Source of the DNA: Fibrobacterota bacterium
GTDB taxonomy: Bacteria > Fibrobacterota > Fibrobacteria > UBA5070
Direction: 5' to 3'
Assembly (NCBI GenBank): GCA_016715065.1
Contig: JADKBN010000002.1
Location: forward strand, 212,286 to 276,285
DNA: 64,000 bases
A program made the translations under genes and the position numbers. The notes beneath the pieces are model-generated. The model made no database searches, was not told the origin of the DNA, and saw only the letters and a program-made list of their open reading frames with translations. This document shows, one piece after another, positions 34,442-38,665 of the stretch (the first letter of the stretch is position 1; the number at the start of each line of letters is the position of its first letter).

Positions 34442-35215
34442 TCACTTCTCCGGTTTGGGGAACCACGCGGCGGAGGTGTCGGGCTGGTAGGGCTTGAAGT
34501 ACGGATCGTATTTGTCGCGGGTCTGGGTGCAGAGCATGGGGCTGCCTTCGATGCGCTTGGCACAATACCCGTCCGTGTTGGGGGCGGCCACTTCCGGAAG
34601 CCACGCCTGGCAGCTGCGCATGCCGTTGACCATGCTCCAAGCCGAGCAGTTCCAGGGGCCCACCACGGCGGTGTCGCGCAGGCCAGCGTCGTAGCAGTAC
34701 TTGCCGTCCTGCGAATAGTTCATGCACTTCCAGTAGACACTGGAATCCTGGCGATGGGTGGTGTCCACGTTCACAGTGACCTGCAACGCCCCCTCGGGGA
34801 AGATGTCGTTGCGCGGCCGCAGGGTGAGGGACAATCGGCTGAGCTTGTAGGGCTCGATGCGTACGGTGTCGTTGGCGTAGTAGTTGAGCTGGGTCTTGTC
34901 GTTGACCAACGAAAGGCTCACGTACACGGTGCCTGCGCGCAGGTTCGGCACCCAGATGTCGTTGGTGTCGGCGGGGAGGTCCAGGAAGATCGACCTCTCC
35001 AACTTGGAGCCGTAGACGTTCACGTAGAGCTTGTAGTCGGCTCCCAGTTGGTTCTTCACGAAGTCGGCGGGCAGGCGGAAGGCGAGAGAGCCGGTGTGGC
35101 CAGAATTTGTCTGAAGCTGGCTCGGGTTGTCCGAAGCGGTGGATTGCGGTTGGCAGGATTGGAGGGCGAGAATCGCCGCGATGGCGCCGGCGAACAGCAT
35201 GTGTCGGATGGACAT
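34442..35215 (-). CDS. Lipoprotein (paralog family A, Cys/Trp/Tyr-rich C-terminal region)
   Basis: ATG 35215 gives MSIRHMLFAGAIAAILALQSC (lipobox LQSC); shares an AFRLP N-domain with 35484-36467. Confidence 0.55.
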   Translation of the reverse strand: MSIRHMLFAGAIAAILALQSCQPQSTASDNPSQLQTNSGHTGSLAFRLPADFVKNQLGADYKLYVNVYGSKLERSIFLDLPADTNDIWVPNLRAGTVYVSLSLVNDKTQLNYYANDTVRIEPYKLSRLSLTLRPRNDIFPEGALQVTVNVDTTHRQDSSVYWKCMNYSQDGKYCYDAGLRDTAVVGPWNCSAWSMVNGMRSCQAWLPEVAAPNTDGYCAKRIEGSPMLCTQTRDKYDPYFKPYQPDTSAAWFPKPEK

Positions 35216-35483
35216 GAGGGTTCCTTTCGGTCGAGGCCCTGAGCGGGCCGACCTGGCTTGTGGCGGGTGGGGCGACTCCGGGGAGGCGCTCTCCCCGAAG
35301 CCAAGATTCCTCGGAAGGAGCCTTGTGCCCAATCGAAGGTACCCCTTGCATCCAGCGACCTGCTTGCCAGTTCCCTCGATTGCGCTTCCCGGCGAGGAAA
35401 CGCTTCCTTGACGGAAAACGCCCGCCCCGCCCTCGAGGAAGGGGCGGAGGCGGGCAGGCGGGAGAAGCTGAACGAATCAGGCG

Positions 35484-36467
35484 TTACGAATCGGAAGGAG
35501 ATCGCCACAGAGAGGCGGAATCCGCGCAGTTGTACCGGGCCCCTTGTGGGAAGCCATTGTCGTAGGACACCCGCTCGCAGGTGCCGACGGGCAGCTTCTT
35601 GTAGCGACCCGTGAAGCAGTAGACGTTCGAATCGCTGGACCAGAACGAGGGGTGGCACCAGGTGGTTTTGTCGAGCGATTTCGTCCCCACGGTGGAATCC
35701 TGCCAGAGCGTGTCGCGTTTGACGTAGGGCAGATAGTGGGGGCGGTAGCAACGGTAGGTCCCGCGCTGGGTCAGGCTGTCGACGCTCTGGATGTAGCACC
35801 AGTCTGTGGTGTCCTGGTTCGGGGTGCGCCAGAATGTGTCCGCCCAGACCGTGTCGCCGGGAATCGGCAAAACCGTCATGTGGTGGCAATCGACCCTGAA
35901 GCGGTTGGTGGATCCGACCAGGACCGGAGTTTCGCAGTAGTCGTAGGAGTCGTAGGCCCAGCCGGTCGATGTGCGCGATGTCCAGACGGTATCCATGAAT
36001 CGGAAAGGAATCGCCGAATCCAGGCTGGAGGCCGAATCCAAGGAAATGTCGATCAGCAGGTTGCCCCTGCGCACGGGGCGGCGAAGCACGATGTTGGCGA
36101 GGGTCGTCTGGTTGTAGTCGATTTCCACCGTATCGGAGCCCGACCAGGAGGCGACCCCAGCCGGATCGACGGCTTGCACCAGGACCGCTCTGGTTCCGCA
36201 AGGGATGCCATCCAATCGAATCGGAGCCGTGTCCAGGATCGTGGATCCACGCATCGTGTCCATTCCCGGACCGGTCACTATGAACTCGAGGTACAAGGCC
36301 TGGGTGCGCAGGAACTCGACATTCTGTTGAGAGAGTCGGAAGGCGACCGCGCCCGTTCCCTCGGAGGATCGGTCTCCGGTCGGTGCGGTCACTTGGCTGC
36401 TTTGGCAACCTTGGAAGGCGGCGAACATCGTCGCCGCCAGTAGCGCGAATGGTTTGCGTAACGACAT
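35484..36467 (-). CDS. Lipoprotein (paralog family A)
   Basis: AAGGAG ribosome-binding site then ATG 36467, giving MSLRKPFALLAATMFAAFQGC (lipobox); AFRLS N-domain and Cys-rich C-terminal half. Confidence 0.55.
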   Translation of the reverse strand: MSLRKPFALLAATMFAAFQGCQSSQVTAPTGDRSSEGTGAVAFRLSQQNVEFLRTQALYLEFIVTGPGMDTMRGSTILDTAPIRLDGIPCGTRAVLVQAVDPAGVASWSGSDTVEIDYNQTTLANIVLRRPVRRGNLLIDISLDSASSLDSAIPFRFMDTVWTSRTSTGWAYDSYDYCETPVLVGSTNRFRVDCHHMTVLPIPGDTVWADTFWRTPNQDTTDWCYIQSVDSLTQRGTYRCYRPHYLPYVKRDTLWQDSTVGTKSLDKTTWCHPSFWSSDSNVYCFTGRYKKLPVGTCERVSYDNGFPQGARYNCADSASLWRSPSDS

Positions 36468-36587
36468 TTTGGACACTCCTTGGGTTAGGCCGCGGCAGGG
36501 ACAGCCTGCGCGGGGATGGAGCGAGAGGTTTGCTCTCGCGGCTGTTCTCCGACCTGGGAAGGGCGCTCCTTCCTGGCCAAGAGGGGG

Positions 36588-37838
36588 TTATCTGGGCAGG
36601 TAGAGTCGGGTGGACACCAGGTTGACCTGGGAGGAAGGGGTCGGCACGAAAGCTCCGAGCGTCACCTTCAAGGTGGGGCGACCGGCCATGTCCTGGGACG
36701 AGCGAAGGACCCCGACGAATCCTTCGGAGTTGCGGACCTCGACGATACCCGGGGTCCAGAAGAAGTACCAGATCTGGCTGGACAATTTTTGTTCCGGAGT
36801 CTGCATCCCTTGCGCGGAATCGAGGAAGGAGCCCCTGGGCTGGATCTGGAAGCTGTCGGAGATCGTCCGCATCCGGGGATTCAGGTTGAGGAATGCACCC
36901 GAACCCAGCTCGTCGTTGAGCTCGAAGTGCAGGTACCTGCCGGAATCCGCCGGCAAAGGCTGGGAAAACAAAAACCGCATCGCGATGAATCCGGTCTCGG
37001 GAAGGCGAGCGGACTCCAATACTGTCAAAATCTGGCCGTTGATGGTGTCCGGAAAGGCGGGGATCCTCGCCGGGCCGCTCGTGAGGAAGGCGGAATCGGA
37101 GGAAGACGAGCTTCCAGAGCCTTGCCGGAAGCTTGAATTGCTGAAGGTGTCCTTGCGGACGATCCAGCCCGGAAGGAACGACCGGTCGACCGCGTACCTG
37201 CGCCCCTGGACCTGGAACGAATCCATGGAGATGTTCGGGCCTTCGGGGAAGAACGGCTCCCTGAAACCCGTATCCGTGTCGGAAACGGGCGGGCGCACCA
37301 CCACGACGGAATCCTTGGTTACGACGAAAGGCGTCACCATCGGTGCGGCCGCGCCTCTTGCGATGGCCAGATCCCATGTGCCCTGCGGAAGCGAGATCAC
37401 GGCGCCGGAGCCTTCGGACTGCGACCTGGAAGCGAAATGGCTGCCCGGCACGAAACAGCGTGGCGCGCCGTTGGAATCGGCGGGGATGCTGAGATCGTGG
37501 GACGGGGAGAGTAGGACCGACGCTCTCGATGTGGACCCGAAGGCCAATGGCGCCATGCCAAGGGAATCTTCCCGCTGCACGTCCAGGCCCAGACCCATCG
37601 GTCCGTCGGCGGGGACGGGAAAATTGGCGAGCCCGGAGGCATCGGTCCAGGAACTGTCCAATGCCATTGCTGGAGCGGAATCGCCGCGCGAGCGGACCAG
37701 CCACACCCGGGCGGAAGCGACCGGGGAGCCGTCCTTGCGATGCACGCGCGCTTGCAGATCGGAGGTTTCGAAGCCGCCGGTCTTGACCTCCCCGCACGAG
37801 GTGATCCAAAGGGCGAGAAGCGGGAAAAGACGTTTCAT
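36588..37838 (-). CDS. Lipoprotein
   Basis: ATG 37838 preceded by AGGAGA; MKRLFPLLALWITSC (lipobox ITSC); 4-bp overlap with the upstream TIGR02147-like gene. Confidence 0.55.
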   Translation of the reverse strand: MKRLFPLLALWITSCGEVKTGGFETSDLQARVHRKDGSPVASARVWLVRSRGDSAPAMALDSSWTDASGLANFPVPADGPMGLGLDVQREDSLGMAPLAFGSTSRASVLLSPSHDLSIPADSNGAPRCFVPGSHFASRSQSEGSGAVISLPQGTWDLAIARGAAAPMVTPFVVTKDSVVVVRPPVSDTDTGFREPFFPEGPNISMDSFQVQGRRYAVDRSFLPGWIVRKDTFSNSSFRQGSGSSSSSDSAFLTSGPARIPAFPDTINGQILTVLESARLPETGFIAMRFLFSQPLPADSGRYLHFELNDELGSGAFLNLNPRMRTISDSFQIQPRGSFLDSAQGMQTPEQKLSSQIWYFFWTPGIVEVRNSEGFVGVLRSSQDMAGRPTLKVTLGAFVPTPSSQVNLVSTRLYLPR

Positions 37839-38665
37839 GGGGAGGTCTCCTCTTCGCGAAGGGCCAGAGGAAACGCCTGCAGGTTGACCTGCACCACGCG
37901 GTCGGCCTGGTCGTCCGAGCGAGACAATTCGAGGATCTCGCGACGAAGATGTCGCAACCGGTCGCGAACGCGTTCGAAGGATGCCTTCGAGAGCGTGACC
38001 GTGATGGTGGAAATGGAGCGATCTTCGCGATCGAACCGGTCCAGCGCTTCTCCGGCAAGGCGGATGGTCTCCTTGCGGAACACATTGACCGCCTCGGCGT
38101 CTGCTTCGTCGGTGGTCAAGAACCTGTCCGTTTTTCGCCAAATTCCGTCCGGGTCGCGACGGATCAGGTCCAAGGTGGAAAGCAGCTCGAGGGTTTCTTC
38201 CACCGTCTTGGCATCCAGTGGTGGGCGCAGCATCGAGCCCAAAAGTTCGTGGTTGTCGGAATGCTCCACCAGCTCGAGTGTTTCCAGGATGGCCACGGCG
38301 CGCCAATCGCGACAGAAGGCGATCTTGGACCTTTCCAGCTGCGCCAGCGGAATGCGCCGCCAACTGGCGATGCGGTCGGCGAAGTGCATCTTCTCTTCGT
38401 GGCTCTTGGCCTGATCCAAGAGCACCAGCAGCTCGAAGTACCGGGTTTCCTGGGCGCCCAAATGGAAAATCTCCGCCAACCGCAACGAGCCGGAGGGCGT
38501 GAGGTTCACTTCGCCAGTCAGGATCCGTCCGAAGAAGGCGGAACTTGTGAAGCCAGCCTTCTGCGCGATGAACCGATGGGAAAACCGAGGGTCTTCCGCT
38601 TTCCTTTCCGACCAGGCGTCGGAGAGGAATTTTCTGTATTCGGTGTAGGTGAATAGATCTGGCAT
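37835..38665 (-). CDS. TIGR02147-family protein (Fibrobacter-type paralogous putative regulator)
   Basis: N-terminus TEYRKFLSDAWSERKAEDPRFSHRFIAQKAGFTSSAFFGRIL matches the family signature YR.FL......K......S.R....K.GF.S...........G; 276 aa. Confidence 0.6.
   Translation of the reverse strand: MPDLFTYTEYRKFLSDAWSERKAEDPRFSHRFIAQKAGFTSSAFFGRILTGEVNLTPSGSLRLAEIFHLGAQETRYFELLVLLDQAKSHEEKMHFADRIASWRRIPLAQLERSKIAFCRDWRAVAILETLELVEHSDNHELLGSMLRPPLDAKTVEETLELLSTLDLIRRDPDGIWRKTDRFLTTDEADAEAVNVFRKETIRLAGEALDRFDREDRSISTITVTLSKASFERVRDRLRHLRREILELSRSDDQADRVVQVNLQAFPLALREEETSP

Follow-up and report, generated by a model that had tools for sequence, protein, structure and literature searches.

The DNA examined here is a 64-kb stretch of a Fibrobacterota genome (64,000 nucleotides, 61.7% GC; referred to below as the window), in which a biotin operon carries, between bioB and bioF, a block of four genes that begins with a member of the protein family TIGR02147 and continues with three lipoprotein genes. 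Many long spurious open reading frames (ORFs) occur in all frames of the window; genes were accepted on the basis of codon-position GC content, matches to hidden Markov models (HMMs), and independent public gene calls, the latter taken from contigs of the wastewater 'Fibrobacteres bacterium' metagenome-assembled genome GCA_002414805.1, which are identical to the window. The block occupies exactly positions 34442-38665, and all genes of the operon lie on the minus strand. Its upstream flank is bioB (38762-39772; Radical_SAM and BATS domains in the public calls), and its downstream flank consists of bioF (33259-34326; Aminotran_1_2) and a bioD-bioA fusion (31260-33266; AAA_26 and Aminotran_3), which joins both activities in one 668-residue protein and is kept in all related loci seen.

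The first gene of the block (37835-38665) encodes the TIGR02147 protein of 276 residues, hereafter the regulator, and is followed by a gene for a 416-residue lipoprotein (36588-37838), hereafter the partner. The regulator stop and the partner start share the sequence ATGA, a 4-bp overlap (junction ...CCATGAAACGT...). A second lipoprotein gene (35484-36476) encodes 330 residues from a GTG codon, or 327 residues from the ATG at 36467 that is used in the public calls, and a third (34442-35215; 257 residues) forms the conserved 3' edge of the cassette. The public calls agree on all three lipoprotein genes, and all three products begin with a signal peptide and fit the PROSITE lipobox pattern PS51257, with the lipobox cysteine at Cys15 in the partner, Cys24 in the second, and Cys22 in the third lipoprotein. 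An earlier note on this DNA had described a TIGR02147-like gene that overlaps the first of three lipoprotein genes by 4 bp, and this description stands in every part. From these signals, the three proteins are predicted to be lipid-modified and located at the membrane or the cell surface.

The regulator gene and an exported partner form a conserved unit

TIGR02147 (NCBIfam 'Fsuc_second') is a paralogous family that was first defined in Fibrobacter succinogenes and to which databases assign no function. A proteome table for Bdellovibrio includes one member, Bd3700, at higher levels when the bacterium grows in prey, and the literature is otherwise essentially silent. The family comprises 7748 clusters at 50% identity (E<=1e-3), nearly all of them with 270-295 residues. 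The regulator is an ordinary high-scoring member of the usual length and without a signal peptide; it matches TIGR02147 from end to end with 237.1 bits (cutoff 50; profile positions 1-270 of 272), as the earlier note had expected, and Pfam DUF4423 with 97.2 bits (cutoff 30). A second, short copy lies at 61349-61678 (see below). The two are too divergent to match each other in tblastn, which detected no further copy in the window.

Family loci from about 30 genomes were assembled from exact homologue look-ups, from a pattern scan in which each species was represented by one genome, and from extra copies inside the loci so found. The pattern scan yielded 28 loci with 21-85% identity, mostly from Fibrobacterota, together with one from Chitinivibrionales, two from Bdellovibrionota, and one from 'Deltaproteobacteria'. 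An exported-protein gene was the next gene on the same strand in 34 of the 36 family genes that could be evaluated. Relative to the regulator stop, the partner start was found at -4 in 24 of these 34 (ATGA or GTGA), at -8 in three, at -14 in one, at +1 to +15 in four, and at about +145 in two. Thirty of the 34 exported partners have a signal peptide ending in Cys, and four have a type-I signal. The strict PS51257 pattern was passed by 19 of 29 partners versus 19 of 259 control ORFs (7.3%; Fisher p=1.5e-12). The strict pattern was used since a relaxed lipobox rule yielded false positives, and the controls were ORFs from the same loci filtered by GC content at the third codon position, since a naive set of longest ORFs gave spurious ORFs in DNA of 62% GC.

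The partners share more than their export signal. The motif GG(F/T/S)ET(S/T)(D/N), GGFETSD in the partner of the window, lies 5-20 residues past the lipidated Cys in 15 of 29 partners. Only one of 27 other lipoprotein-like ORFs has it, and this ORF in turn follows a family gene as its partner. Transitive BLAST linked the partners to each other via their N-terminal ~170 residues. The similarities of regulators and of partners co-vary (Mantel r=0.81, a value reached by 0 of 2000 permutations), which indicates that inheritance and duplication involve both genes together. One locus with a split regulator (L027) still has a normal partner at -4, and in one Bdellovibrionota locus (L038) a copy that lacks its own partner is convergent with the cassette of another paralog. 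We conclude that the regulator-plus-lipoprotein pair is a conserved unit of the whole TIGR02147 family. The earlier note had seen the pairing twice in the window and suggested that it recurs; the tally of downstream neighbours extends it to the family at large, and the full-length copy of the window takes part in it, while the short copy, as described below, does not.

In the Bdellovibrionota loci the partners (L036, 1412-2468; L038, 6827-7888, minus strand) are secreted proteins, not lipoproteins, with the motif DSVGNGGD right after a type-I signal peptide; the class of cargo thus differs between phyla while the pairing persists.

The regulator is predicted to have two DNA-binding-type domains

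An AlphaFold2 (AF2) model of the regulator was built from 17 sequences and has a mean predicted local distance difference test score (pLDDT) of 85.8. Residues 1-100 form a five-helix helix-turn-helix (HTH) domain of the Cro/C1 (XRE) type, as the earlier note had surmised for the N-terminal region, residues 112-180 an ArsR-like winged helix, and residues 191-250 two long helices in a hairpin that resembles a dimerization element. The C-terminal tail carries the conserved sequence QVNxQxFP. The top Foldseek matches were ArsR/SmtB proteins and PH1932; no solved structure matched the regulator over its full length in Foldseek, a sequence search of the PDB found no relative of either the regulator or the partner, and the Pfam models HTH_3 and HTH_31 did not match the full-length protein. 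The combination of an XRE-type HTH, a winged helix, and a hairpin argues for a DNA-binding regulator rather than a chaperone, and on the strength of the model we take the TIGR02147/DUF4423 protein to be a cytoplasmic two-HTH DNA-binding protein. The earlier note had offered 'regulator or chaperone'; the all-helical two-HTH fold, together with the upstream palindrome described below, favours the former term, and the fold speaks against the latter.

A conserved regulator accompanies hypervariable cargo

The window was compared mainly with the complete genome CP064986 (locus L005) and, as a second relative, with L042. Against CP064986, bioB is 98.5% identical at the amino acid level (synonymous divergence, dS, 0.41; nonsynonymous divergence, dN, 0.012), and the regulator is conserved to the same degree (98.2%; dS 0.42, dN 0.011). 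The partner, in contrast, is only 43% identical (dS 1.40, dN 0.54) and the second lipoprotein 48% (dS 1.34, dN 0.52), whereas conservation returns with the third lipoprotein (87.5%; dS 0.24, dN 0.070), bioF (95%; dS 0.43, dN 0.032), and the bioD-bioA fusion (94%; dS 0.70, dN 0.042). The rise in synonymous divergence starts within the first 50 codons of the partner gene. The hypervariable segment (35425-37366) covers the C-terminal two thirds of the partner and most of the second lipoprotein; blastn found no similarity to CP064986 at 37366-36379 or 36030-35425 and a patch of 70.9% identity at 36379-36030, between flanks that are 83-89% identical. A replaceable segment of about 2 kb is therefore present inside the biotin operon. 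The roughly threefold excess of dS within it over the flanks indicates that its alleles are much older than the divergence of the genomes, which points to replacement and not only to fast evolution; such replacement would imply recombination or exchange between paralogs, with recombination as the mechanism we infer from the sequence comparison.

Other relatives show the same contrast. In L042 the regulator is 94.5% identical and the partner 39%, with 68.6% for the third lipoprotein and 80% for bioF, and in ten more locus pairs the regulator was always far better conserved than the partner (for example, 85 versus 42% and 89 versus 59%). The partner is 52% identical in a farther genome (L011; bioF 78%), versus 43% in the nearer CP064986 (bioF 95%). 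Four cassette layouts were found between bioB and bioF: one module in the window, two modules plus a gene for a 353-residue protein in CP064986, two modules in another order in L042, and two modules in L011. These layouts suggest repeated tandem duplication, loss, or exchange of modules at this site. The modules in the relatives lie at 6880-7941 and 8001-9985 of L005, 410-5517 of L042, and 3923-5890 of L011.

Two special sources of variability, a diversity-generating retroelement and an invertible promoter, were considered and set aside, as whole genes are divergent, long inverted repeats were not seen in the flanks, and the partner fold is not that of a C-type lectin (no search for a reverse transcriptase was made).

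Predicted folds of the three lipoproteins

The AF2 model of the partner, built from 33 sequences with a pLDDT of 83.5, shows a disordered tether after Cys15, a residue that is nearly invariant among the 33 homologues, and then three beta domains: beta-sandwich domain structure resembling CarboxypepD_reg precedes a C-terminal jelly roll like those of concanavalin A and glycoside hydrolase family 16 (GH16). Lipoproteins with a carboxypeptidase-regulatory-like domain are among those of the F. succinogenes S85 envelope proteome, which contains several (FSU_2817, FSU_1088, FSU_2134, and FSU_0627; PMC6851124). The C-terminal domain of the partner has the beta-jelly-roll fold of the GH16/concanavalin-A-like group; no Glu within it is invariant or near-invariant among the 33 homologues, so that the catalytic motif ExDxxE/ExDxE is lacking, and the domain is read as lectin-like. 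The lack of a conserved Glu, together with a sequence identity to GH16 of 6-13%, speaks against classing the partner as a GH16 enzyme. From the model, the partner most likely acts in the cell envelope by binding and not as an enzyme, and it may be exposed at the surface.

No NCBIfam or Pfam family was found for any of the three lipoproteins. The second lipoprotein is weakly related to the third; both have an N-terminal domain with the sequence 'GxGAxAFRL' and a Cys/Trp-rich C-terminal half, and the 8-10 Cys residues of each suggest disulfide-rich extracytoplasmic domains.

A conserved palindrome and a candidate promoter box precede the regulator gene

Between bioB and the regulator gene is a spacer of 96 bp, which holds the inverted repeat TGTTTCGAATGTCGGAACA (38732-38750, minus strand), 84-66 nt upstream of the regulator ATG. 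This putative operator corresponds to TGTTT-N9-AAACA with one mismatch and is the sole match to that pattern in the window. When the upstream region of the window and six orthologous or paralogous ones, otherwise divergent, were aligned, two invariant blocks remained: the half-sites GTTTC and GAAAC, and a TAnATTC box about 16-27 nt before the ATG. In the window the box reads TAGATTC (38684-38690), 25 nt before the ATG, and in other family loci TAnATT is found at -16 to -44.

In 11 of 34 family loci the palindrome, exact or with one mismatch, is found between -104 and -75; among them are members of subfamilies that share only ~35% identity with the protein of the window (L015, L017, L020). Five loci carry the exact palindrome, versus a background of 0.5% (p=1e-6), and 13 carry it with at most one mismatch anywhere upstream, versus a background of 6.5% (p=9e-8). 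L007 has the same half-sites with N10 spacing, and a paralog in L042 (56% identical) has a variant palindrome, GCTTCC-N6-GGAAGC, in the same position; generic inverted repeats with arms of at least 6 were only weakly enriched (10 of 32 versus 18%), and it was TGTTT-N9-AAACA that proved informative. The conservation of a palindrome at a fixed upstream distance suggests, indirectly, that the regulator may bind DNA in a sequence-specific manner. To our knowledge, TGTTT-N9-AAACA bears no resemblance to the operators of BirA, BioQ, or BioR.

Bacteroidetes and Chlorobi are sister phyla of Fibrobacterota. The TAnATTC box is similar to the Bacteroidetes sigma-A -7 box TAnnTTTG (PMC9723704) and to the Chlorobi -7 box TA[ATC][ATC][AT]T (bioRxiv 10.1101/172254), and is therefore a candidate promoter element of the -7/-10 type of the Fibrobacteres-Chlorobi-Bacteroidetes (FCB) group. 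The palindrome centre lies about 50 nt upstream of the box; should TAnATTC be the promoter, such a spacing would be commoner among activators than among repressors. Activation or autoregulation by the regulator is suggested by this arrangement.

Interpretation of the bioB-bioF cassette

We consider it rather probable that 34442-38750 is a self-contained cassette, a four-gene operon inserted between bioB and bioF, in which a dimeric two-HTH regulator governs its own operon by binding to the palindrome ahead of it, and whose cargo consists of exchanged, lectin-like lipoproteins of the envelope, possibly of the surface, under diversifying or balancing selection. The regulator gene is translationally coupled to the partner gene through the ATGA overlap, and in this proposal a regulator dimer would most likely bind TGTTT-N9-AAACA and so govern transcription of the operon. 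The lipoproteins are the cargo: the regulator and promoter on one side, and the third lipoprotein and bioF on the other, are conserved, while the segment between them appears to be replaced by very old divergent alleles, and the number of cassettes varies among close relatives. The conserved regulator gene could serve as the homology anchor for the exchange.

Several observations weigh against this proposal. The palindrome is absent from two thirds of the family loci, although divergent paralogs may use other operator sites, and several of the loci that carry it are orthologous, so that the counts overstate independence and about eight independent lineages are represented. That the regulator acts on the palindrome or on the operon is deduced from sequence comparison. 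A scan of the operon for sigma-70 promoters and terminators found nothing above chance, and the candidate promoter box was deduced from the consensus of Bacteroidetes and Chlorobi, which may differ from that of Fibrobacterota. One family gene (L033) is a true exception with no exported neighbour. If far less regulator than lipoprotein is needed, there is no obvious mechanistic reason to couple a cytoplasmic regulator to an exported protein. Surface exposure and ligand binding are deduced from fold and variability, and the high dS could also arise by paralog replacement after tandem duplication and differential loss, in which case no recombinational import would be needed.

The strongest competing explanation is that the regulator acts on other targets, either the biotin genes or a global regulon, and that its adjacency to the lipoproteins reflects joint inheritance. 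Its position between bioB and bioF in the window and in at least five related genomes, and a degree of conservation like that of bioB (98%), would suit such a housekeeping role. Paralogous cassettes with the same overlap and palindrome are found, however, in unrelated contexts (L007, L009, L015-L037), and the palindrome occurs once in the window, directly before the regulator gene and near no other genes; we therefore regard regulation of other targets as unlikely. Less probable still is a selfish or defensive two-gene module of the toxin-antitoxin or anti-phage kind, in which the XRE-type protein neutralizes or represses an effector. HigA-type antitoxins and the regulators of defence systems are usually encoded in this way, by an XRE-type HTH gene that overlaps the gene behind it; HigA is among the fold matches, and the family is rich in paralogs within single genomes, occurs in tandem, and has cargo that varies. 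PADLOC, however, matched none of the five proteins, and the cassette contains no mobility genes. The partner is exported as a lipoprotein; its domains are of the beta-sandwich and lectin-like types, none of them resembles a nuclease, a kinase, or a pore, and targets in the cytoplasm are out of its reach. We regard as highly improbable a third reading, in which the regulator would serve the pre-lipoprotein in the cytoplasm as its own chaperone or targeting factor. The strict coupling (ATGA or GTGA in 24 of 36), typical of proteins made in a fixed ratio, and the family-specific motif just past the lipidated Cys might suggest it. Against it stand the two DNA-binding-type domains and the dimerization-like hairpin, which account for the whole protein, the absence of any observed similarity to SecB, Lol, or further export chaperones, the conserved palindrome upstream, and the strong conservation of the regulator next to a presumed client that is free to vary.

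The short family member is a maintained HTH-only protein

The second family gene of the window (61349-61678, plus strand, GTG start) encodes 109 residues that match TIGR02147 with 77.3 bits (cutoff 50) at profile positions 1-99 of 272, in agreement with the earlier note, which had described it as the N-terminal third of a family member. Pfam DUF4423 did not match it, HTH_31 scored 22.9 bits, under the cutoff of 27, and no TGTTT-N9-AAACA palindrome was found upstream of the gene. Only three proteins among 5.8 billion, itself included, are matched by the short copy. The orthologues are likewise short: 108 residues in L041 (87% identity), a protein publicly called with 81 residues that has 108 from the same GTG start, and 101 residues in L039 (68%). 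Between the window and L041, dN is 0.06 and dS 1.58 over codons 2-88 (dN/dS 0.04), codons 89-109 having been left out on account of a one-codon indel. The short copy is thus a maintained HTH-only protein under strong purifying selection.

In L041 the gene order is GH8, GH5, short gene, and the ATPase gene of an ATP-binding cassette (ABC) transporter, and in L039 the short gene is likewise followed by the ABC ATPase. The same ATPase N-terminus (MNIVEIRDLVKNYPL...) begins in the window at 63833, beyond a phosphoesterase gene, and its 5' end (63833-64000, plus strand) is present; the best NCBIfam matches are MacB and LolD. This conserved MacB/LolD-type neighbour of the short gene lies at 2293-2973 in L039. 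The phosphoesterase is missing between the short gene and the ATPase in both relatives examined, so that it is no conserved neighbour, and the second pairing in the window is coincidental. The earlier note was correct as to position, a secreted phosphoesterase gene starting 85 bp past the short gene, and not in counting this as an instance of the pairing. That the short copy is a decaying remnant, as the note had thought possible, and repeats the family rule would suit the restricted profile match (1-99 of 272) and the exported-protein gene 85 bp downstream, but is very improbable in view of the short orthologues in two other genomes, the low dN/dS at a dS of ~1.6, the 85-bp spacer, into which no DUF4423 remnant fits, and the ATPase as next gene in both relatives.

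The phosphoesterase (61763-63729, plus strand) is a calcineurin-like protein with a signal-peptide-like N-terminus and is not a lipoprotein; the ORF of 505 codons matches Metallophos with 49 bits. The ORF that starts at 61763 ends at 63280 with a nonsense-looking tail, and the coding signal runs on in another frame to 63729, the switch near 62950-63100 being visible in codon-position GC content. This is either a real frameshift, and the gene a pseudogene, or an assembly error. The T9SS-like (type IX secretion system) C-terminal domain ascribed to this protein in the earlier note was not borne out: the beta-rich C-terminal part lies in the other frame and matched no NCBIfam or Pfam model, and no T9SS sorting domain (TIGR04183, Por_Secre_tail) was found at E<=0.1 in NCBIfam or E<=1 in Pfam at the C-termini of the phosphoesterase or of the GH8 and GH5 proteins. 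The latter are two adjacent secreted cellulases upstream of the short gene (57652-59514, GH8, and 59316-61154, GH5, plus strand, from the Pfam annotation of their L041 counterparts), which end in similar beta-rich segments of ~90 residues resembling the end of the phosphoesterase.

Genes adjoining the biotin operon

Divergent from bioB lies a gene for an outer-membrane receptor with a Plug domain (40362-42341, plus strand), which is 82% identical to its CP064986 counterpart versus 98.5% for the neighbouring bioB. Downstream of it, to about 50000, are genes for CobU, CobS, a CobT-like protein, and a periplasmic binding protein, so that a cluster for vitamin B12 uptake and salvage adjoins the biotin operon (Pfam calls on the identical public contig).

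Significance and comparison with known systems

A large family without assigned function (7748 clusters, with dozens of paralogs in Fibrobacter and 24 or more in F. succinogenes S85) becomes, through the two-HTH architecture, the pairing, and the candidate operator, a directly testable system of regulator and target. The contrast between a near-invariant regulator and fully divergent cargo suggests that envelope proteins are under strong selection, diversifying or balancing, and phages, predators, or substrate specificity may drive envelope variation in these poorly studied cellulolytic bacteria. A broader proposal, which we advance tentatively as possible rather than probable, is that TIGR02147/DUF4423 proteins are dedicated, self-encoded switches. 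In Fibrobacterota they would serve a large repertoire of exchangeable cassettes for envelope lipoproteins, which has relatives in Bdellovibrionota; each cassette would have its own two-HTH regulator and operator, and the regulator gene would double as a recombination anchor for swapping hypervariable, lectin-like, and probably surface-exposed lipoproteins between strains and between paralogous loci. If true, this would be an undescribed way of organizing surface variation and would provide a function for a family of over 7000 clusters.

Local regulators of the HTH type and loci for variable envelope proteins are, as general kinds, already known. No earlier description was found of an obligate link to a lipoprotein, of a two-HTH architecture or a candidate operator for the family, or of a conserved regulator organized with hypervariable cargo, and the definition of TIGR02147 does not, as far as we could find, include the lipoprotein pairing, the upstream palindrome, or the hypervariable cargo. 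Among local regulators of the XRE/Cro-C1 type (P22 c2, DdrO, ClgR, HigA antitoxins), to which the sequence similarity is marginal (E 0.1-0.5), the regulator differs by its additional winged-helix domain and helical hairpin, and its downstream gene encodes an exported protein and no toxin. The DUF4423 part (residues 112-250) aligns with ArsR/SmtB-like winged-helix proteins that have a C-terminal helical dimerization element (PH1932/1uly, Phr, Kfla_6221), over 168-175 columns with 1uly and 4g6q; unlike these, the regulator has an extra XRE domain, and the TM-scores are low (0.28-0.34, normalized to the query).

At the level of the locus, the cassette recalls the polysaccharide utilization loci (PULs) of Bacteroidota with their SusR, hybrid two-component, and extracytoplasmic function (ECF)/anti-sigma regulators, which likewise combine a dedicated regulator for each locus with numerous paralogous loci in a genome and with lipoproteins whose folds are of the carbohydrate-binding type, and whose bearers belong to the same FCB superphylum. 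In contrast to the PULs, the cassette has neither a SusC/SusD pair nor a membrane sensor, and its regulator belongs to an unrelated family, is cytoplasmic, and has no evident sensor domain. The sharply bounded divergent segment between near-identical flanks is a feature shared with O-antigen and capsule loci and with the variable lipoprotein loci of Mycoplasma and Borrelia, as are a phylogeny of the segment that is incongruent with that of the genome and a variable copy number. Unlike at those loci, no repeats, invertible promoter, silent cassettes, or recombinase were seen here, and the variation lies between genomes.

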